Part shown: piece after piece, positions 27,036 through 45,584 of the stretch
How positions within the stretch are numbered: position 1 is the first letter of the stretch
Layout of the letters: each line of letters starts with the position of its first letter
Sequence record: OZ346219.1
DNA from: a phage
Strand: one strand, 5' to 3'
Length of the DNA: 64,000 nucleotides
Translations under genes and position numbers: made by a program
Notes under the pieces: generated by a model
Seen by the model: only the letters and a program-made list of their open reading frames with translations
The model's database searches: none
Told to the model about the DNA's origin: nothing

Positions 27036-27515
27036 TGCTAAATCATTGCAATATTTTAGTGCCTTAGTTTGAAACTCTGCGCTGTTAAGTTCTTCATAAC
27101 GGTCATAATCACCGTTTAATGCTGCCTTTCTTGCTTCTTGCTCTATCTGCATGTCAGACATGATAATACAGCGATCCCGTGCTTTCATCTTCTCAAGTTG
27201 TATAGACTCTTCTTTCTGCTTGCGCAATTCTTCTTGACGCTTCTTTTCTTCTTGTGCTTTCTCTTCCCGCGCTTCTTTGATTGCATCCTTGAACATCTGC
27301 GTTTGTGGTGCTAAACCAACTTTAACCCGATCTACGTCTCGACGTTCCATTTTAGAAATAAAGCATGATTCGATCTGTTTATCACTTGCATATGATGCTT
27401 TACATTCACGAAGCAAGAAAACCGGATCTGATTTAGCATTCATCATAGCTTCCATGTTGGTACAACCAGTAAGCATGAATGCAGCCGCAAGACCAATCAG
27501 TTTAATCATTTTCAT
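27030..27515 (-). CDS. putative lipoprotein
   Basis: 161 aa; signal peptide with lipobox LTGC; charged coiled-coil region. Confidence 0.6.
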   Translation of the reverse strand: MKMIKLIGLAAAFMLTGCTNMEAMMNAKSDPVFLLRECKASYASDKQIESCFISKMERRDVDRVKVGLAPQTQMFKDAIKEAREEKAQEEKKRQEELRKQKEESIQLEKMKARDRCIIMSDMQIEQEARKAALNGDYDRYEELNSAEFQTKALKYCNDLAK

Positions 27516-28336
27516 TTAGTCACCTCACCGAAAATTGTAAATTGTCTACGATTCTCATCGCCGAAAGATTCTACTACGTCGTTTACCTTTACGCAAGTCC
27601 CGCGCGGTAAAATTACTTCACATTCGCAAGGATTCCATGCAATTGACCCAACAACAAAACCTTTATGATCTTTTACTTCAATTACCCATGATACATTACA
27701 AGAATGTTGCATCTTTCCGGTCATTGATTCATATCGATTCTCACAATAAAGGCTAGTGCTGTTTGATAGCCATCCTCCAAAGATGATTGGTGTCATGCTG
27801 GTTGACACAAAGTTTTTAAAGGTAAATTCCTTATCTTCAATAATACGCTCTATTGTCTGAATGTCAAGATGTTGACCGCGATAAAGAGTACAGTTTAACT
27901 TTTCGGTTTTATCCATGACACAATCCATCAAATCAACAATCTCTGATATCTCATTGGTCATGTCTTCTTCCCCTAAGAGAGCACCATTTACCCATTCGTA
28001 TTGTTCAGACACATAATCACAGATTGCATTATATTCTGCTGGGGTTATGTTGTTATGTTTGTAATGTTTGAATACATTATCTCCAAAGTCTTCGGAGTGT
28101 ACTTCATACATCACATTAATGATTTTCTTGACAAATCCATAATCTTGTGTCTCTCGCTCAAGGAAGCGGATAACCTTCACATAATCATCAAAGTTAATCT
28201 GATCGCTGATCATCTCAGTGATCATGTAGCCATTAATCCCCTCAATGTCATATGTTTCGATGTAATTATCCATACGTTCCATCATTGATTCGCGTGATTC
28301 TTCTGAAAGACGAAAATCCTGTAATTGTTTGAACAT
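27512..28336 (-). CDS. ADP-ribosyltransferase, short Alt/Mod-like paralog
   Basis: 274 aa; R-S-ExE motifs (LYRGQ, VSTSMTP, ECEVILPRG) shared with adjacent alt. Confidence 0.75.
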   Translation of the reverse strand: MFKQLQDFRLSEESRESMMERMDNYIETYDIEGINGYMITEMISDQINFDDYVKVIRFLERETQDYGFVKKIINVMYEVHSEDFGDNVFKHYKHNNITPAEYNAICDYVSEQYEWVNGALLGEEDMTNEISEIVDLMDCVMDKTEKLNCTLYRGQHLDIQTIERIIEDKEFTFKNFVSTSMTPIIFGGWLSNSTSLYCENRYESMTGKMQHSCNVSWVIEVKDHKGFVVGSIAWNPCECEVILPRGTCVKVNDVVESFGDENRRQFTIFGEVTK

Positions 28337-28414: not shown

Positions 28415-30466
28415 TTACATTTTAAATTTATCCGGCATTGCGTCTACAGATACCAGATCAGCGATAAGCTGACGTAGAGTTGCCTTATCTGCTTTCTTAC
28501 GTTCGGTTTTAGCTTCGCTAATGAAGCTGGAGAAAGACAGGTCAGAAGCAGGTTTAACAACACCTTCACGGATGAATGCATCACCGTCCGCGATCATCTC
28601 GCCAGATTCTTGTAATGCTGCCAGTTCATTTTTGTTCATAATATGTGCCTCAATGTAATAAGTTTCTTGTGAATCCGTCGATGCAGTAGCACGAGTTACC
28701 GTATCAAAGGATAACACAACACCGCGAGGAAGTAAAATCTCGCATTCTTTGTAAGCAAATGCTTTGTTACCTACTGGCAAGACAGGGATGTTTTCCGCGC
28801 CAGCAATGGAGAAAGCAACATTAGCGCCACCTTCACCGCGAGAGCCAGCCATAGAATCAACACCAGCAACGGCACTAGCCACGTTTGCATTCCAGCCGCC
28901 AAAAATGTTAGGTGCAAGGGAAGTGCTCACATAGTTTTTAAAGTAAAACGCTTTTTGCTTACGTGCAGTTTCCCACATTTGCGACCGGAAGTCCATACCA
29001 CGATACAGAATAGTACCAGGATCAAGTTTAACGCCATAGTTAGAGAAGGCATTATCCAGTGCATCGCACATCTTGACCAGTTCTTCTGGATCTGCGATTC
29101 CTTCAAACTCTTCCAGCTTACGGTCGGTTAGGAAGTTGTTCATGTTGATGTATGCTGCATCGGCATATTCGCTCAACACAAAACCTTCCGCGCCCGGCAG
29201 ATCAAGATCAATATCTGCCATCATTTCACCCATGTTGCTAGCAATTGCTTCAAACATACCGGAAGCAACATTACGTAGGGCATCGGTTTTAATCTGGGTG
29301 ATATGACTACGCAGCATTTCAGCTTTTACATCTGCTGGCATAGACTGGTCTACTCGATCCATTGCCAGAGCGGTGATCTTGTTTTCGAATACTTCCTCGC
29401 TCATGATTTCTTTTAAGCGTTTGATTGATGCTGCGATAACTTCCGCAGACAACGGATCATATTGATCCTGAACTTTTACCAGTTCGCTTACTGCGTATTT
29501 TGCATCGGCTTCGCTTTCAAAAATAGTACGCATGAAACCATAGCGAGTGATAATATCACTTGTCCAGTCATTCAGAGAACGAGCGGTTGAACGTTCTAAT
29601 GCTTGACGATCAATCAGAGTATTAAACTGTTTCTTAGGTTCGGCTTCGGTGATATCTTCTTCTGGTTTAAGATTAATTTTTTCTGGATGATTCACGTAGT
29701 CGCTGTTATATGTCGCTTGAGTTTTCAGCATTTCTTCTTTAGTCAAACGAGATTTAGCCGCTACGCGTTGTTCTGCTTCCGCGTTTCGTTCTTCTTCTGA
29801 CACAAGACTAGCCGCATATGCCTCATCTTTAGTCAGAGATTCACCCGTAGCCTTAGATACCCAGCGATCACCTAAATCACTTTCTACTTTAGTGAACAAG
29901 GATTCATCAAGTTTAATACCTTTAATCTTATCAATCGCCATCCCGCGACGCTTGACAACAACTAAAGCGATCTTTTTGCTGGTCATTACTTCCTGCTGGA
30001 ATACTTCAAACTTCGGTGTACGACGCACCAAACGCTCTATAACGCGCTTAACCAGTTCGGTCTTACCTTTCATGCGGGATACGTTAAAACGGAACATAAC
30101 AGCGTCTAATTGCGCTTTACGGGCTGTTTCCATAACCACATCAAAAGCACTTGCCATAACTGCAATCGGGTTATCGCCTAGACCATTTTTAAGCTGTACA
30201 ATACGACCGCTTTTGTTCATTTCGCACAGTACAACATGTGCGGTCTTGTCACCCATACGAATGATTTTAGGTGTTTTGTTGGTGAAGTTACAAAGACGGA
30301 CAATCACATCTTTATCGCGTGTCTGTACTGCAAAAAGCTGTTTAGGATTCTGCTTAGGCTTTAAGCACTGTACCGGAGCAATACTACCAAAGTTTTCTTC
30401 CTCTTCCGTCAACAGCCATTTCTCGAAAGATTCAATCATTAGATCGTCGATTTCTAAGTTAAACAT
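28415..30466 (-). CDS. alt: Alt ADP-ribosyltransferase (head-packaged)
   Basis: 683 aa; LFTKVES.LGD, ILYRGMD, FYFKNYVSTSLAPNIFGGW, ECEILLPRG as in T4 Alt. Confidence 0.88.
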   Translation of the reverse strand: MFNLEIDDLMIESFEKWLLTEEEENFGSIAPVQCLKPKQNPKQLFAVQTRDKDVIVRLCNFTNKTPKIIRMGDKTAHVVLCEMNKSGRIVQLKNGLGDNPIAVMASAFDVVMETARKAQLDAVMFRFNVSRMKGKTELVKRVIERLVRRTPKFEVFQQEVMTSKKIALVVVKRRGMAIDKIKGIKLDESLFTKVESDLGDRWVSKATGESLTKDEAYAASLVSEEERNAEAEQRVAAKSRLTKEEMLKTQATYNSDYVNHPEKINLKPEEDITEAEPKKQFNTLIDRQALERSTARSLNDWTSDIITRYGFMRTIFESEADAKYAVSELVKVQDQYDPLSAEVIAASIKRLKEIMSEEVFENKITALAMDRVDQSMPADVKAEMLRSHITQIKTDALRNVASGMFEAIASNMGEMMADIDLDLPGAEGFVLSEYADAAYINMNNFLTDRKLEEFEGIADPEELVKMCDALDNAFSNYGVKLDPGTILYRGMDFRSQMWETARKQKAFYFKNYVSTSLAPNIFGGWNANVASAVAGVDSMAGSRGEGGANVAFSIAGAENIPVLPVGNKAFAYKECEILLPRGVVLSFDTVTRATASTDSQETYYIEAHIMNKNELAALQESGEMIADGDAFIREGVVKPASDLSFSSFISEAKTERKKADKATLRQLIADLVSVDAMPDKFKM

Positions 30467-31066: not shown

Positions 31067-31585
31067 TTAGTTATTTTTTAATTGCTCATCTTGCAATAGG
31101 GCAATCACATGCTGGCGATGTTCTTCCGATTGAGGCACACCGAAAAAGTTTGTTTTGTAGAAATACTCTAATCGGTCTTCTCGTGTGCTCTCTTCCATCA
31201 TGATCGCGGGTAGTCCGAGATTTCGGAAACGTCGCTTTTCTGCTGGCGTAAAATCACTGTAATACAACATAGAATCATCATTACCAGCAATGCTAAACTC
31301 ATCCTTCATAAAGGAGAATATTGCGTTTAAACGCTGTTTACCGTCCACGATTTCGATCTCATAGCGAGAGCCATCATCAATCTTAGCCATTGCGATAGCA
31401 CCAACCGGAAAATCATTAATAAGGTTTTCGATAAACATACGTTTGTTTTCGGTGTCCCATACTAAAGGACGCTGATAATCTGGGTTCATGCTGATATAGC
31501 CATCTTCTAACCATGCATCATAAACAGAGATGACAAAGTTTTTAGTATTGGTATAGTAACGGCGTTTAGGCGTTAAACGGTTCAT
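31067..31585 (-). CDS. DUF262 / ParB-like domain protein (stand-alone)
   Basis: start at MNRLTPKRR (RBS aggaga); motifs DYQRPLVW and IVDGKQRLNAI typical of DUF262/ParB N-terminal domain. Confidence 0.6.
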   Translation of the reverse strand: MNRLTPKRRYYTNTKNFVISVYDAWLEDGYISMNPDYQRPLVWDTENKRMFIENLINDFPVGAIAMAKIDDGSRYEIEIVDGKQRLNAIFSFMKDEFSIAGNDDSMLYYSDFTPAEKRRFRNLGLPAIMMEESTREDRLEYFYKTNFFGVPQSEEHRQHVIALLQDEQLKNN

Positions 31586-31586
31586 G

Positions 31587-31919
31587 TTATAGTCTCCTGA
31601 ATGGATCATCACGTAAATCAATATCTTTTAAGAACTCATCCCATGAATGCCGGATATTGTTCTTAATTCTCCAGATAAGCGCAGGGATTGAACGCTCTCC
31701 CATCTGGAAGTAGGGATCATATGATCCGTATGCCCAATATGCTACTACAATTCCACAATCAGCGCAATAGTATTCTATTTCACTGGCTGGCGACCAAAGT
31801 CCATCAATATGATCGGTGATCTTGCTTTCGATGTTATGGCTATGACAATCAGGGCAACGGATGCAATGACCTTGTTTATCGTAATTTGACGTTAGCGAAT
31901 ACTTAAACAATCTCATCAT
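31587..31919 (-). CDS. zinc-finger protein (CxxC...CxxC)
   Basis: 110 aa; CIRCPDCHSH ... CADCG. Confidence 0.5.
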   Translation of the reverse strand: MMRLFKYSLTSNYDKQGHCIRCPDCHSHNIESKITDHIDGLWSPASEIEYYCADCGIVVAYWAYGSYDPYFQMGERSIPALIWRIKNNIRHSWDEFLKDIDLRDDPFRRL

Positions 31920-38252: not shown

Positions 38253-38729
38253 TTATTTTTCTTGATGCTCGCGATCGTACTTTTCGAAATAAAATTCTAC
38301 TGGCTGGTCATGAATTGACAGTAAGCCAAAGCGTTTAGCCGCTCGCAATCCCATATTGCGCTGAATGTACTTCTGGAAGTTCTCGCGTATACACTTACGC
38401 CAGTATTCTAAGCCCATACAGCTTTTATAAAGATTGCATTGCACACACGCCGGATTCATGTTATCAAGTATATCATGTTCCGGTTTATGCATTCCTACAA
38501 CCTTATACTTCCACGATCCATCATCATTACGGGCAATTCGTCCATTTTCATCATAGACTACCTTTGAGCGTCGCAATACTGGTTTGATGTGGTCTGCGTG
38601 CCAGCGATCCCCTAGTTCCTCGCCACAATAGGCACAACGTCCACCATATTTCATTTTCAGGATCTGGCGTTGCTCTTTCTTTGACATTTTTTTAGGTTTA
38701 GGGGCTTTCGCCCCTTCATTATCACACAT
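38253..38729 (-). CDS. HNH endonuclease
   Basis: 158 aa; CAYCG...HADHIKP...CVQCN HNH motif. Confidence 0.65.
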   Translation of the reverse strand: MCDNEGAKAPKPKKMSKKEQRQILKMKYGGRCAYCGEELGDRWHADHIKPVLRRSKVVYDENGRIARNDDGSWKYKVVGMHKPEHDILDNMNPACVQCNLYKSCMGLEYWRKCIRENFQKYIQRNMGLRAAKRFGLLSIHDQPVEFYFEKYDREHQEK

Positions 38730-40224
38730 CGAATACCTCTTTTACTGTATTTGCAGTGGTCTTGTCGTATCGAATACGTTTGATGATCGGGAGAAATAAA
38801 GAGAACTCCGGTTCATCTTCTTTACGTGATTTGCTGCGGATATACCCGTTGCATGTCATCTCAATGACTTTTCCAATCAGGTTATGACGGTCAGCCCATA
38901 ACATTTCTCGGTCGAGTTCATTTCGACGATCGAACGGAATTACACGTTCAGTACCATCATCACCTTTTTCGGTTGTAGTGTCGGTTAATCCCGATCCGGT
39001 GTTAGTCATCATTCGTCCGCACGCACTACGGACAGTAAAACCGCCTACCTTATTGGGGTCTTTACTATGCGGATATACATCAACAATTTCCGCGTCGAAG
39101 TCAATCACTTCTTTAAATTTAACCTGATCTTTACTACGGCGATCTTCAAATACACCATGTAAATTTTTAAGGATAATACCTTCTAAGCCCATGTTGACAT
39201 AACGATGATATACTTCGCGAGCTTCATCGATATTGTTAACTACAGTGTTTTCGATGATCTGAACACGAGGATCGTTAAGTTCTTCAACAATCTGTTTTAG
39301 TTCTTCGAATCGATCTTTATATTGCTTCGTTGCTTTCTCGTTTCCGTAATACACATCACGGTCGATAACATCCCAGACAGTGTAAACAATACATTGGGCT
39401 TCTTCTTTTGGAATAGTTCCTTTCAGTGATTTGTTGAGGATACCATTTCCGGTCTGACGATCTGCAACAACGGATTCTTTTACTGCTTCCGCTACTGGCG
39501 TTAATGGCATTTCCTCTTCTTCAAATATCCATGACAGAGTACCATCATAAACGCTTTCAACGAAGTTCTGCGCTGGTGTTTGCGAAAGGGTAGGCATATA
39601 TACCAATTCCCCATCTAGAACAATTCCACGGCCTCGTAGACGCTCTAAAACCGCAAACAAATCATCAAGCCCTTGATAGGTATTACCTGAGCGGGTATAG
39701 ATTGCTAATGTTTCCCCGTCAATATCAGCCATACCACGAGCGCCATCGCTTTTAAGTTGTGCATACGCCGGATACTTGATATTAGCAATAGTCTTATCAG
39801 AACATGACGATGCAAGGTGGCACGGTTGCTGAGGGATCAGTTTCTTCCATACCTTGTTTGCGGTGGTAGCGGAACAACCGCATTCCAGATCACGATTCAG
39901 GACCATCATTGCAACTTTAGCATCATCCTCTGACAAGCAAGTCAGAGTATCGGTAACTAGCTGTAATGCTGCATTACCAGTTACTTGACGCGTGGCAAGT
40001 TTATTTTTAAAGACCTGTAATGCACCGGATAAAGACAATACAGACGAATAGCGAGATGGTTTATCGTATTTCTTTACGCCAAACGTAACCTGTTTGCAAT
40101 ATGCCAGATAAAAGCATTCTTTCAGCGTTTCATTGCTTGCTGATTCTTTCAGAATCTTTTCTTTCAGCGATGTTTTGTCTGTTGCTGCAAGCTGATTAAT
40201 GATATTAAGAATTGACATTTTCAC
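38722..40224 (-). CDS. 30: ATP-dependent DNA ligase gp30
   Basis: 500 aa; adenylation motif AQLKSDGAR; LDGELVY, GLEGIILK, KFKEVID as in T4 ligase. Confidence 0.92.
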   Translation of the reverse strand: MKMSILNIINQLAATDKTSLKEKILKESASNETLKECFYLAYCKQVTFGVKKYDKPSRYSSVLSLSGALQVFKNKLATRQVTGNAALQLVTDTLTCLSEDDAKVAMMVLNRDLECGCSATTANKVWKKLIPQQPCHLASSCSDKTIANIKYPAYAQLKSDGARGMADIDGETLAIYTRSGNTYQGLDDLFAVLERLRGRGIVLDGELVYMPTLSQTPAQNFVESVYDGTLSWIFEEEEMPLTPVAEAVKESVVADRQTGNGILNKSLKGTIPKEEAQCIVYTVWDVIDRDVYYGNEKATKQYKDRFEELKQIVEELNDPRVQIIENTVVNNIDEAREVYHRYVNMGLEGIILKNLHGVFEDRRSKDQVKFKEVIDFDAEIVDVYPHSKDPNKVGGFTVRSACGRMMTNTGSGLTDTTTEKGDDGTERVIPFDRRNELDREMLWADRHNLIGKVIEMTCNGYIRSKSRKEDEPEFSLFLPIIKRIRYDKTTANTVKEVFDV

Positions 40225-40684
40225 CTCGTTTTGTTAAACGTTCACGAATATCATTGAGGATACTACAAAATTCCGATTCAGTCAATATAGTCTTTAACGG
40301 ATCAGTTCCACCTATACTATGACGTAATTTCTTATTTCCGGTAGCGAGTAATGCTTTACAAAATTCTGGGTTATTCCGTGCCATCGTAACAAATGCCAGA
40401 TGCACCAGTCTGTAATAATGCTCACTCATTCGATGAATCGGGCGACCCTGAAAATATAACAGGTGATTCTCAATCTTTTCAGTTCTTCCGGTTCTTTTTG
40501 CTTTGCCACCGTGCATCAAAAAGATTTCTCTTTGTCTCTGAGGGTTCTTAAATCTTAGCCCCTGTAAAAATCCTTCTGTGCTGTTAATATCGCAACCAAA
40601 TAAACGGAATGGTCTTTTATTGAAATTACTCAATTCACCCGATGGATAAGGTCCACCCGCATAGATATCAATTTCAGAAGTCAT
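40205..40684 (-). CDS. NADAR (YbiA-like) domain protein
   Basis: 159 aa; LSNF..RPF.LFG, STEGFLQG, LLATGNKKL resemble NADAR/DUF1768 pattern. Confidence 0.5.
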   Translation of the reverse strand: MTSEIDIYAGGPYPSGELSNFNKRPFRLFGCDINSTEGFLQGLRFKNPQRQREIFLMHGGKAKRTGRTEKIENHLLYFQGRPIHRMSEHYYRLVHLAFVTMARNNPEFCKALLATGNKKLRHSIGGTDPLKTILTESEFCSILNDIRERLTKRGENVNS

Positions 40685-40859
40685 TGAAACTAATCTCGCT
40701 AATCAGAGAGAACGGATCATAATCGTCATTAGGAATATCGATAGTAATCGAATGAGGATTTACCCATACACCAAACTGGTCTTCTTCGGTGAATACTTCG
40801 GTATGGATTTCGTGGATGTTTACATTCATAGTTTTCATAATAAATTCCTTAATAATCAA
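40674..40859 (-). CDS. hypothetical protein (61 aa)
   Basis: ORF only. Confidence 0.35.
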   Translation of the reverse strand: MIIKEFIMKTMNVNIHEIHTEVFTEEDQFGVWVNPHSITIDIPNDDYDPFSLISEISFNDF

Positions 40860-40881
40860 TAACTTACAAAATCATATAGCC

Positions 40882-40908
40882 AAAATATAGGCGGGATTAT
40901 TTCCCGCC
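40882..40908 (-). terminator. rho-independent terminator (leftward) after gene 31
   Basis: A-rich run + ggcggga ttatt tcccgcc. Confidence 0.55.
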
Positions 40909-40919
40909 GTTTAAAATCA

Positions 40920-41243
40920 TTAACCGTAAACTACCACAATATTCTGTTTGTGCGTTACAGTCCATTTCAGGTCGATCTCTTCTTCCTTCTTAACGCCGTT
41001 AATAACGTCTGGATGAGGAACTTTATTCATCTTGCCATGTGGCAGTAGAACAGTTTTACCCAGCAATTCTTTATCTACCGTCTCGCCAATATCAATAATC
41101 TTACCTACCAGCGGAATCTCGCCCATAGTGCGCTTTTGCTCAATAATGATCCCAATAGAGCTTTTTACTTCTGTCCCTGCGCTTTCTGCTTTAGCTTCAA
41201 TGATCACATAGTCACCAAGTGCTTTAGGAGTTTTAACGGTCAT
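40920..41243 (-). CDS. 31: co-chaperonin gp31 (GroES-like)
   Basis: 107 aa; GDYVII...G.II...V..G.....G..V.L; position as T4 gene 31. Confidence 0.75.
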   Translation of the reverse strand: MTVKTPKALGDYVIIEAKAESAGTEVKSSIGIIIEQKRTMGEIPLVGKIIDIGETVDKELLGKTVLLPHGKMNKVPHPDVINGVKKEEEIDLKWTVTHKQNIVVVYG

Positions 41244-41284
41244 AATTTTATTACCTCTTCAAATCAATACAGTTTAATGATGAA

Positions 41285-41605
41285 TTATTTATAAATTTCG
41301 ACGATCTGCGCTGGAGTCAGCCCGTCTACATTAATCAGAGTATCAAGCCCAAAACTACGGAAACCTTCAACTGCAATTTCATATACTGGCAAAGATGTTT
41401 CTGATTCTTTACGCGGTTTTTCAACATTAGGAACTAACCACTTTTCGTATGTTTCAAACGGCATCAGTGCCGGATCTCGCGTGGCGATCATCTCACGGAC
41501 AGTACCATCTTTCTTAGTAAACTGCAAAGAGTGAGTACCGACCGAAAACATTTTCTTTAGTGCTTCACGAAGTGCGATATTATCAACTTGTTCAGTCATT
41601 ATCAA
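41285..41605 (-). CDS. hypothetical protein (position of T4 31.1)
   Basis: 106 aa ORF. Confidence 0.55.
   Translation of the reverse strand: MIMTEQVDNIALREALKKMFSVGTHSLQFTKKDGTVREMIATRDPALMPFETYEKWLVPNVEKPRKESETSLPVYEIAVEGFRSFGLDTLINVDGLTPAQIVEIYK
41286..41293 (-). promoter_or_regulatory. possible T4-type late promoter for gene 31
   Basis: TATAAATA on - strand 43 nt upstream of gp31 ATG. Confidence 0.3.
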
Positions 41606-42098
41606 TACCCTTCAAATCAGTCAATAATGCTTTTGGAATACGCGTGATCGTAATATCTGCATTATTCAGAATATCAGCCCAATCACGCCCACCATTTCGG
41701 TCATATGTGTCGCAATAGTATAGATGTTTGATTCCACTGTTTGCAATTGCTTTAGCGCAATCTGGACAAGGTGAAGCAGTGCACCACATACTAGCGCCTT
41801 CAATCGATACACCGCTACGGGCAGCAAACAAAATAGCATTTAATTCAGCGTGGATCTCGTTTTTATGTGACCATGCACTATGCTCTGGCCGTTTTTCTGG
41901 GATCATTTTGCCGTCATCATCCAGCCAACCGCTTTTATGTGCATGACAGCTACAATTTACTTGCCCTGCTGGAGTGCCGTTAAATCCAGTAGAAATGATT
42001 CGCCCGTCTTTTTCAATTAGTGCGCCTACCTTCCACGAAACACATTTAGAGTTCTTTGCGATTAGATAGGCGATCTGCATGTAAGTTTGTGACAACAT
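41592..42098 (-). CDS. cd: dCMP deaminase
   Basis: 168 aa; zinc-binding HAELNAI and PCPDCAKAI motifs. Confidence 0.88.
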   Translation of the reverse strand: MLSQTYMQIAYLIAKNSKCVSWKVGALIEKDGRIISTGFNGTPAGQVNCSCHAHKSGWLDDDGKMIPEKRPEHSAWSHKNEIHAELNAILFAARSGVSIEGASMWCTASPCPDCAKAIANSGIKHLYYCDTYDRNGGRDWADILNNADITITRIPKALLTDLKGIDND

Positions 42099-42119: not shown

Positions 42120-42323
42120 TTAACCGTATACGCGAAAGTATTCTACTGATCCGTCGCTATACTGTTTTACATTGAATGTATTCACGCCATGATCATTGCT
42201 CATAATGACATACACACTGCGACGCTCATCACTAAACGGGTTAACTGGTGCTGGTTCAATTTCAACATTAAAACCACGTTTAGCAAGTGCTTCGCCTAAT
42301 TTCTTGAGTTTATCGGTAAACAT
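42120..42323 (-). CDS. hypothetical protein (67 aa)
   Basis: ORF only. Confidence 0.45.
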   Translation of the reverse strand: MFTDKLKKLGEALAKRGFNVEIEPAPVNPFSDERRSVYVIMSNDHGVNTFNVKQYSDGSVEYFRVYG

Positions 42324-43222
42324 TAAAAGTCTCCGTAGTTAACCTGAAAACATTCTACACCAATTGAGCGATACATGTCAACCACTTGATCACGGTCATC
42401 TACCGCCAAAACAACATGATAACGCGGTGCAATTTCAGAGAAGAAGATCTCTTTCTTCACTTCATGATCAGGACGACGATCATTAGTTTCACGTTGAAAG
42501 TGATCACTCGGTTCAATACCCTGTTCACGCAACCATTGCAGAGTATCTTCTTCGCAAACATCCTCACGCCCTGAGCATGTAATGATACGATAACCATTAT
42601 CACGATACAGTTTAAGCATTTCGACCACTTGCGGACGAGGTTTATCTTCTTTGACCTTTGTCCAGTCAAACGGATGACGACCGCCCTTATCCGCTAATGT
42701 CCCATCAATATCAAAGATCACTGCCTTTGGCAGCATGGTATTCGGTTTGTATACTTCTTGACCCATATATTCCTGCATCAGATAAAATTGGTTGCGCAAA
42801 TGAGAAAGTGGAATTGCTTTCTCACCGCGATAGAAATTACGTTTCTTTAGTGTCTCAAATGATTCATTGAACACTTGTTCAGTATACACCGCGTTAAATT
42901 CTTTTGCAAGTTCTTTGTAGAATACACGATGTTTTTCTTTCAGGTTGGTATCAGAGATAATGATACTTAATCCGCGTGATAGAGTCTCACGAGCAATCAT
43001 TCTCTGAATAGACTCTACCAGCTTTTCTTTTTCCTTAGTATACTTGTATTTCAAATGTGAGTCAACACCAAACAACATAAGACGAAGATCATCACGATTC
43101 ACATTACGATAATTACTAAACCGTTTACATGTTTCCATCGCCCATGTAGTTTTACCGGACCCAGAACAACCAACGGTTAAAATCACTTCACATTTCGGCA
43201 TTATTTCTCCTTCGGTTTGCAC
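42323..43222 (-). CDS. pseT: polynucleotide kinase / 3'-phosphatase PseT
   Basis: 299 aa; P-loop GCSGSGKTTWA; HAD motif AVIFDIDGTLA; RIGVECFQV as in T4 PseT. Confidence 0.92.
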   Translation of the reverse strand: MQTEGEIMPKCEVILTVGCSGSGKTTWAMETCKRFSNYRNVNRDDLRLMLFGVDSHLKYKYTKEKEKLVESIQRMIARETLSRGLSIIISDTNLKEKHRVFYKELAKEFNAVYTEQVFNESFETLKKRNFYRGEKAIPLSHLRNQFYLMQEYMGQEVYKPNTMLPKAVIFDIDGTLADKGGRHPFDWTKVKEDKPRPQVVEMLKLYRDNGYRIITCSGREDVCEEDTLQWLREQGIEPSDHFQRETNDRRPDHEVKKEIFFSEIAPRYHVVLAVDDRDQVVDMYRSIGVECFQVNYGDF

Positions 43223-44017: not shown

Positions 44018-45187
44018 TTACCAATCAATCTTATCAGCCGGAATAAGTTTCTTATAATTCCGTAGATAGTAAGTTTTCATTGAATCCAGAATACGGTCAT
44101 AATCAAGACCATCAAATGCAATCATCAGACACATGAAAATATATGCTTGTGCATCACCATGTTTACGTGATTCGATAGTCGCATTTGATGCATATGTCTT
44201 TCTGTCTTCTCCCGCGTGTGCGTTATAAAATTCTGTTGCTGTCGTGAAGGCATTGCGAAGAATAGACCTGAATGCTTCCTCGAATAGCTCGATTCGTTCC
44301 AGTGCTTCCGGTTCGCCTTCATATGCAGCACGCAAATCATCGGTTTCGCTTTCTACGACATAGTAGATCAGGTTATTAGGAAACATCGATGTGTTTTTAA
44401 TGTTATGCACACCAATATACCATTCACTCTTCACTTTGAACATTTGACCGTCTTTAGTGCGTGCAACAATTCCTTCGATACCTTCTGCGGTCCGAACTTC
44501 ATCAAGAATATTGCTAAAACGCGCTGAATCAACCTGTAACGCATTTACCAGATGAGGACGTAGGATTGCGTCAGAAAATAGCATTTGATGCGGTACGTAC
44601 TCTCCTGTGACGTTATGGCGTACATTCAGAAGTGTTAGCGACGGTTCAGAATATTCTACAACAATTCGGTTGCTGGGCGCTGTATATTCAAAGTTGAAAG
44701 TATAATCAGACCCAATATCAGCAATCTTAGCGCGTAGATCCGCATACTTCTCTGAATACAGAAGACCGTTTGCTCTCTCTGCCTGGCTTGAGTACAAGGC
44801 CGCTTTAGACTTCAACTGAACATAGCCGTTATCAATGTAGGTGCTTACTAGACTACCGTCCATTTTGTCCATGACCATTTCCACATCTTCCGGCTTAAAG
44901 CGAGCGCGATCATTCTCACCCAAATTAAAAAACTTCTCCATAGGACGAGATGCAATGCGGACAGGTCGGTCTTTATCATCGATTTCAAACATGATCCCGC
45001 GACACTCTAACGCATCTGGTTTATTCCACATTTCCGGTTTGCTCAAGTACAGATAACTAAAAATGCGCATACGGGTTTGCATCGCCGTAATTTCATCTTT
45101 GTAATAGAACGTATCAGATCCGTCACATAGTGCCATCAGATTTTTGAACAATGCTAAAACTTTTTTGTTGTTTTCTTTTGTTGACAT
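44018..45187 (-). CDS. rnlA: RNA ligase 1 (RnlA, gp63)
   Basis: 389 aa; ALECRGIMFE, PVRIASRPMEKFFNL, nucleotidyltransferase KMDGSLV, NFE..AP.NRIV as in T4 RnlA. Confidence 0.92.
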   Translation of the reverse strand: MSTKENNKKVLALFKNLMALCDGSDTFYYKDEITAMQTRMRIFSYLYLSKPEMWNKPDALECRGIMFEIDDKDRPVRIASRPMEKFFNLGENDRARFKPEDVEMVMDKMDGSLVSTYIDNGYVQLKSKAALYSSQAERANGLLYSEKYADLRAKIADIGSDYTFNFEYTAPSNRIVVEYSEPSLTLLNVRHNVTGEYVPHQMLFSDAILRPHLVNALQVDSARFSNILDEVRTAEGIEGIVARTKDGQMFKVKSEWYIGVHNIKNTSMFPNNLIYYVVESETDDLRAAYEGEPEALERIELFEEAFRSILRNAFTTATEFYNAHAGEDRKTYASNATIESRKHGDAQAYIFMCLMIAFDGLDYDRILDSMKTYYLRNYKKLIPADKIDW

Positions 45188-45584
45188 AATTTGTGTTCCA
45201 TTCTGGTTTAAATTTGGTGATCAAAACAGGTTCTTCGATATCGGCAGTGCTTATAATATCCTTACCCGTTGGATTCTCAATATATAACTCAAAGCACTGG
45301 CGGTAATAGAATGTTACTGTCTTACCTTCCTCTAGCGCCTTATGAATATTCTTACTCTTGCGAGTATCCGCTGTTGGTGTTTGTCTGTTAATGCTAGTCC
45401 GGTAATAATTGATCCGCTTTCTGAGATTGACAGTCTGACCAATATATACCAGTTCATCATCAACAACAATAGCGTAAAGAACATTTAAACGGTTCTTCTG
45501 AGGCGGCAGAATCACATCACCATCTTTACACTCTAAACATGAATATTTAACGAATCCATAGTTTTCTATTAGCTCATTAATCAT
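45123..45584 (-). CDS. denA: endonuclease II (DenA), GIY-YIG family
   Basis: 153 aa; NVLYAIVVDDELVYIGQTVNLRKRINYYRT...EEP as in T4 DenA. Confidence 0.85.
   Translation of the reverse strand: MINELIENYGFVKYSCLECKDGDVILPPQKNRLNVLYAIVVDDELVYIGQTVNLRKRINYYRTSINRQTPTADTRKSKNIHKALEEGKTVTFYYRQCFELYIENPTGKDIISTADIEEPVLITKFKPEWNTNYVNKRKQQKSFSIVQKSDGTM

Follow-up and report, generated by a model that had tools for sequence, protein, structure and literature searches.

The question raised by this locus is what the small NADAR-like protein encoded beside the DNA ligase gene of this phage is, and what it does. The window, i.e. the whole stretch of 64,000 nucleotides of phage DNA that was analysed (sequence record OZ346219.1), contains the 159-aa ORF exactly where an earlier note on this DNA had put it, on the minus strand, and its start and stop are identical to those annotated in the deposited Krischvirus records. 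The sequence motifs quoted in that note were all found in the translation (LSNF at residues 18-21, PFRLFG at 25-30, STEGFLQG at 35-42, AKRTGR at 62-67 and LLATGNKKL at 112-120). The gene and its two neighbours are the following:

40205..40684, minus strand: adfN (gene 30.3) orthologue, 159 aa from ATG to stop, a core-only phage NADAR and predicted guanine-ADP-ribose DNA glycohydrolase
38722..40218 or 38722..40224, depending on the start codon, minus strand: gene 30, ATP-dependent DNA ligase of 498-500 aa, downstream of adfN (PF01068, 2.8e-22; phrog_114, 1.4e-141)
40674..40838, minus strand: 54-aa ORF, function unassigned, upstream of adfN (phrog_15277, 5.6e-42; annotated in Krischvirus records)

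About 60 RB49-like coliphages share 98-99% identity with this region of the window; they belong to the genus Krischvirus, which the GenBank taxonomy lines place within Straboviridae and outside Tevenvirinae.

The family membership of the protein is clear-cut. On the Pfam model PF08010 ("Phage_30_3 / Bacteriophage protein GP30.3"), whose cut-off is 36 bits, it scores 131.9 bits (E=1.8e-38), and the match is full length, since residues 13-148 fall on profile positions 2-138 of 138. PF08010 is also matched by all 86 aligned relatives, and the window protein belongs in addition to the matches of PHROG 652. The protein of Krischvirus RB49 has the same sequence (100% identity), and T4 gp30.3 aligns with it from end to end with 38% identity (E=3e-30). 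Judged by its sequence, the ORF is orthologous to T4 gp30.3/AdfN and represents the RB49-type form of it found in Krischvirus, a gene already known and identical to that of a sequenced reference phage. In the literature the gp30.3 family (PF08010) is treated as the "phage NADAR" family (PMC11125620, PMC12945103); its members were named "gp30.3 proteins" in Toxins 2024 (PMC11125620), and phage NADARs are one of four NADAR families in Toxins 2026 (PMC12945103). We note that the finding as such is already known; the family to which the protein belongs has been named and characterised by experiment. The deposited records nevertheless name the gene "hypothetical protein" or "T4 like phage protein".

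The family is widespread: tblastn detected a homologue in 1,510 phage records, and an exhaustive HMMER search of a library of 1.8 billion proteins gave 970 cluster representatives at E<=1e-3. The PADLOC models matched neither the window protein nor T4 gp30.3, and the NCBIfam models gave only a weak match (DS32_2 NADAR anti-phage protein, 13.5 bits where the cut-off is 240). Some metagenomic relatives (P0019, P0021, P0024, P0041, P0059, P0068, P0078 and P0080) carry the gp30.3 domain in fusions, which include tandem duplications, a calcineurin-like phosphoesterase (P0068) and BspA-type LRRs (P0059); one form that recurs is about 470 aa long, of which the N-terminal 320 aa or so carry no annotation. 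Most fusion partners had no Pfam match, and those found, Metallophos and LRR_5, say little about the substrate.

The relation to the NADAR fold needs a separate argument. PF08010 is a Pfam model separate from, and divergent from, the Pfam NADAR model PF08719. On the window protein alone PF08719 scores 15.4 bits (E=0.022), below its gathering threshold of 35.1, so that the link to NADARs has to come from profile or structure evidence. A single-sequence phmmer search of the PDB sequences likewise gave no NADAR match, and its top match was a spurious one to DltA (E=7e-4). When a profile of 86 family members was compared with the PDB, the best two matches were E. coli YbiA (6.8e-4) and P. nicotianae NADAR (PnNADAR, 0.15), both aligned through the LSNF and S-x-E...K motifs. 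Moreover, 22 of the 86 family members match PF08719 individually at E<=0.01. The AlphaFold2 model of the window protein is of very high confidence, with a pLDDT of 95.9 and a pTM of 0.90. In a Foldseek search of the PDB with this model only 2B3W (7.5e-6) and 8BAU (1.6e-3) stand out, the rest having E>5, and a search of the predicted viral structures in BFVD returned gp30.3-family proteins first and then many proteins named NADAR. With family profile and predicted structure in agreement, the assignment of the NADAR (YbiA) fold is secure. The NADAR-like character asserted in the earlier note is thus borne out by the full-length PF08010 match and by the family profile and predicted fold, which match NADAR structures. 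The profile search against NADAR/DUF1768 that it had proposed came out mixed: similarity is seen via the family profile, whereas a direct PF08719 match above threshold was not obtained, so that by direct search alone the refutation test named in that note would have been a borderline case.

The state of the allele was assessed from four elements of the protein:

40574..40576, minus strand: codon GAA of E37, the counterpart of catalytic E36 of T4 AdfN, E43 of PnNADAR and E88 of E. coli C7 NADAR
40553..40555, minus strand: codon AGA of R44, at the site of the catalytic, diphosphate-binding Lys (T4 K43, C7 K95)
40319..40321, minus strand: codon CAT of H122, the signature His of phage NADARs, with Glu in the YbiA family and Asp in DarG1-type NADARs
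40214..40279, minus strand: C-terminal helix, residues 136-157 of the AlphaFold2 model, an element missing in the defective RB69 allele

Residues were tallied over 161 aligned family sequences, and conserved columns were taken from the 86-sequence family alignment. The column of E37 contains Glu in 158 of the 161 sequences; the alignment with T4 runs without gaps over residues 3-62, which cover E37, and the family profile places this residue on the S-x-E Glu of YbiA and 8BAU. The column of H122 is His in 159/161, and H122 comes after the last beta-strand (E119-121) of the model. At the catalytic position of the last strand, phage NADARs are known to have His where YbiA has Glu and the DarT1-linked NADARs have Asp (PMC11543638, PMC11125620). 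At the C terminus the alignment reaches the last residue of T4 AdfN and the window protein extends 9 residues further. The window protein agrees with the 86-sequence alignment at all 20 of its invariant or nearly invariant (>=90%) columns. It departs from the consensus at two sites where Trp is usual, with Lys at 70 and Phe at 78; T4 also lacks the Trp at 70. Among the Krischvirus copies the Nei-Gojobori dN/dS is 0.04-0.10, and against the 69%-identical relative it is 0.11-0.13, a rough figure because dS (about 1.6-1.9) is there near saturation. These ratios indicate strong purifying selection. The conserved Glu, the His and the C-terminal helix, like the family membership, the NADAR fold and the purifying selection, are observations on the window protein itself.

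The most striking departure from the family pattern is R44. Its column consists of K (147), R (10), Q (2), T (1) and V (1), and the sequences with Arg include the 69%-identical relative (P0002/L006) as well as several unrelated lineages. By alignment, R44, still a basic residue, is a natural Lys-to-Arg variant at the position of the catalytic Lys.

What such an enzyme does is best documented for NADARs studied elsewhere. Schuller et al. 2023 found that NADARs hydrolyse guanine-N2-ADP-ribose and function as antitoxin to DarT1 (PMC11543638). For T4 gp30.3, removal of guanine-linked ADP-ribose from DNA has been demonstrated both in vitro and in vivo (PMC11125620, PMC11825919). The purified protein removed G-ADPr and not T-ADPr in vitro (PMC11125620), and the T4 enzyme was active on G-ADPr and inactive on C-ADPr (PMC12945103). 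T4 30.3 was renamed adfN (anti-DarT factor NADAR) by Johannesman et al. 2025, who found it necessary and sufficient for resistance to DarTG1 (PMC11825919); transposon insertions in the gene are lost only on DarTG1 hosts, which makes it conditionally essential (bioRxiv 10.1101/2025.11.20.689424). RB69 has a defective allele, truncated by 15 residues, which leaves that phage sensitive to DarTG1 (PMC11825919). By analogy, Krischvirus AdfN would be a core-only ADP-ribosylglycohydrolase of NADAR fold, probably made early in infection. The DarT1 toxin of the host's DarTG1 toxin-antitoxin defence puts ADP-ribose on the N2 of guanine; in the phage DNA, AdfN would bind the guanine-N2 ADP-ribose and cleave its N-glycosidic bond, restoring unmodified DNA, and removal of the adduct would let phage replication proceed in hosts that carry DarTG1. 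We consider it quite probable that the window protein is an ADP-ribosylglycohydrolase which removes the guanine adducts made by DarT1 from phage DNA and so neutralises DarTG1. Its substrate, G-ADPr on DNA, is here read across from the T4 orthologue and other NADARs, and so is its role against DarTG1. On the same analogy, the reversal of DarT-type toxins and the anti-defence role that the earlier note had suggested find support, and can be narrowed down, as the T4 orthologue acts against DarT1 (guanine) and not DarT2 (thymine) (PMC11825919, PMC11125620, bioRxiv 10.1101/2025.11.20.689424).

Several observations count against this proposal: Arg at the catalytic Lys site, Lys 70 and Phe 78 at the usual Trp positions, the sub-threshold direct Pfam NADAR score, and the dependence of AdfN-T4 on a T-even factor, i.e. 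the T4 protein is fully active only during T-even infection (PMC11825919), while this phage lies outside Tevenvirinae and no 30.1/30.2 homologues were detected in the window. The phages assayed against DarTG1 were T2, T4, T6, RB69 and Bas35-47, with no Krischvirus among them (PMC11825919); G-ADPr removal or DarTG1 counter-defence has been shown for the T4/T2 alleles and the unrelated Bas32 and Bas60 NADARs only (PMC11825919, PMC11125620), and a literature search for DarTG tests on a Krischvirus or RB49-like phage found none.

If the Lys-to-Arg change had crippled catalysis, the protein would be a weak or inactive enzyme, for instance a binder of ADP-ribosylated DNA, or the product of a gene decaying like the RB69 allele. 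R44 occupies the site of T4 K43; the E36A and K43A mutants of T4 AdfN are impaired, and on DarTG1 hosts K43A rescues RB69 only in part (PMC11825919). The Lys-to-Arg exchange in E. coli C7 NADAR, K95R, cuts both ways, since the mutant loses the rescue of cells from DarT1 toxicity and yet retains hydrolysis in vitro (PMC11543638). What makes a crippled or decaying enzyme very unlikely in our view is that dN/dS remains at 0.04-0.13, also when measured against the 69%-identical relative that keeps R44, that Arg occurs in several independent lineages with the other motifs intact, and that the ORF is full length and includes the C-terminal helix. Another reading, in which the Krischvirus allele is a functionally shifted AdfN, builds on R44, the two non-Trp positions, a phage outside Tevenvirinae and a window in which no 30.1 or 30.2 homologue was detected; we hold it to be rather improbable. 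Were it true, the protein may act without the T-even helper factor, or may prefer another ADP-ribosylated nucleic-acid substrate or DarT variant, and its comparison with T4 AdfN could reveal the determinants of NADAR specificity in vivo.

A different main substrate is also conceivable for an active hydrolase, namely ADP-ribosylated guanines in RNA, or soluble ADP-ribose derivatives or signals of other host immune systems. All four NADAR families, that of T4 included, remove G-ADPr from RNA (PMC12945103), the allele differs from T4 at R44, besides the two usually-Trp positions, and RNA-repair genes lie nearby:

42323..43222: pseT
44018..45187: rnlA

Against this, the sole phenotype found for the T4 30.3 knockout is the failure to grow on DarTG1 hosts (PMC11825919; bioRxiv 10.1101/2025.11.20.689424), and the active-site Glu and His are unchanged in the window protein. 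We regard RNA or a soluble compound as an unlikely main substrate, and keep guanine adducts on DNA as the preferred one.

The earlier note had drawn its functional conclusion in part from the genomic context, i.e. from the adjacent ligase and from two ADP-ribosyltransferases encoded in the same genome. Both elements exist. The ligase is 41% identical to T4 gp30, and the 3' end of adfN overlaps the start of its gene by 14-20 nt, according to the ligase start codon. On the other side, there is an overlap of 11 nt between the stop of the 54-aa ORF and the start of adfN, an arrangement suggestive of translational coupling. The pairing of the 54-aa ORF with adfN is kept in the metagenomic relative whose AdfN is 69% identical (L006); by tblastn the 54-aa ORF showed no relation to T4 30.4. 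The two transferases lie 8-12 kb from adfN:

28415..30466, minus strand: ADP-ribosyltransferase-domain ORF, Alt-sized, 683 aa (PF03496)
27512..28336, minus strand: ADP-ribosyltransferase-domain ORF, short paralogue, 274 aa (PF03496), adjacent to the 683-aa ORF

In T4 the gene order is alt, alt.1, 30, 30.1, 30.2, 30.3, 30.4 ... rIII, 31, 31.1, 31.2, cd. The counterparts detectable in the window keep this order and comprise only 30, 30.3, 31.1, cd and cd.2; when 38722..42098 was compared with T4, no counterpart of 30.1, 30.2, 30.4-30.9 or rIII was detected. Gene 30.3 is one of the few genes retained in this variable T4-type block. It adjoins the ligase gene only because 30.1 and 30.2 are absent, and an equally compact ligase-adfN arrangement is seen in the 69%-identical metagenomic relative. 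We rejected the adjacency as evidence of a functional link between adfN and the ligase, because it is not conserved in T4 or JS10, where 30.1 and 30.2 lie in between. As to the earlier note, the adjacency itself is confirmed by the overlap, and its use as support for a repair or anti-defence role falls with the separation of the genes by 30.1/30.2 in T4. The two transferase ORFs were likewise correctly noted, but no link to the NADAR could be established from them. The contextual reasoning, whether from the ligase or from the transferases, does not carry the functional conclusion.

One could still imagine that the protein reverses or edits the phage's own Alt-type ADP-ribosylation, or forms a general DNA-repair module with the ligase next to it. 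The two PF03496 genes and the overlap with the ligase start are compatible with such a role, as is the fact that alt, 30 and 30.3 are neighbours in T4 too, and NADARs are expressed early along with the ADP-ribosyltransferases in T4-like phages (PMC9503650). The documented in-vitro activities of NADARs, however, concern base-linked ADP-ribose (PMC11543638, PMC11125620, PMC12945103), the ligase adjacency is lost in T4 and JS10, and no ligase-dependent phenotype has been reported. We consider a role of this kind extremely improbable and retain the removal of DarT1-made guanine adducts as the function to be expected.

Expression early in infection is probable for the adfN orthologue, given an orientation and synteny like those of the T4 early-gene block. 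A promoter scan around adfN found 20 sites against 16.6±4.4 expected in shuffled sequence, i.e. no better than shuffled, and we draw no conclusion on transcription units from it. The sole feature to emerge lies downstream of gene 31 and is a terminator-like hairpin (40890..40908).

Some other features of the region deserve mention in their own right. Directly downstream of the ligase, overlapping its stop by 8 nt, there is a 158-aa HNH endonuclease ORF (38253..38729, minus strand; Pfam HNH 5e-6, phrog_2118 1.3e-54) where T4 has alt.1; it looks like an insertion of the homing-endonuclease type. A gp31.1-like protein with a WYL_2 (Sm-like SH3) domain (41285..41605, minus strand; L001 4591..4905) is labelled "Tail fiber protein" in OZ034687, which is probably a misannotation. 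A 153-aa ORF (45123..45584, minus strand), which at its 3' end runs into the start of the RNA ligase 1 gene (44018..45187), has a borderline GIY-YIG domain (22.5 bits against a cut-off of 22.6) and is possibly another mobile endonuclease. Finally, the match of a 184-aa ORF (31067..31621, minus strand) to GmrSD type IV restriction enzymes is confined to their N-terminal domain, DUF262 (PF03235, 7.8e-20), which is unusual in a phage-encoded protein. The DNA modification of Krischvirus has been reported as unexplained (PMC13390438).

If the preferred reading is right, RB49-type phages carry the anti-DarTG1 enzyme AdfN, as would the roughly 1,500 phage records with a homologue. In many deposited genomes the gene still goes by "hypothetical protein", and these could be re-annotated. 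The natural Arg variant in the Krischvirus lineage is the one modestly interesting thread, as natural Arg variants outside the tested T-evens offer a ready test of why NADAR activity in vitro is not always matched by protection in vivo.

Comparison with known systems places the protein among the phage NADARs. It differs from E. coli YbiA (PDB 2B3W) and the P. nicotianae NADAR (PDB 8BAU), both of PF08719, in scoring below the gathering threshold of that model and in having His for their Glu. YbiA-type enzymes are tied to riboflavin-intermediate N-glycosidase activity and housekeeping roles (PMC11125620); this identity was ruled out because the last-strand residue, H122, is His and not Glu. The DarG1 antitoxin (BC4488-type; PDB 8BAT; E. 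coli C7 NADAR) has an N-terminal beta-sheet/helix extension that the window protein lacks, its last-strand residue is Asp in place of His, and no darT1 adjoins the window gene, an orphan encoded by a phage, whose neighbours are the 54-aa ORF and the ligase. For these three reasons identity with DarG1 was also ruled out. The T4 system is the closest, although here, too, there are differences: the window protein has R44 for T4 K43 and the 9-residue C-terminal extension, the gene abuts the ligase as 30.1 and 30.2 are missing, and the phage is a Krischvirus outside Tevenvirinae. The window protein and T4 gp30.3, i.e. AdfN, are homologous from end to end, both are core-only proteins of about 150-160 aa that have the signature His and the C-terminal helix in addition to the catalytic Glu, and their genes lie in the same block, between gene 30 and gene 31.
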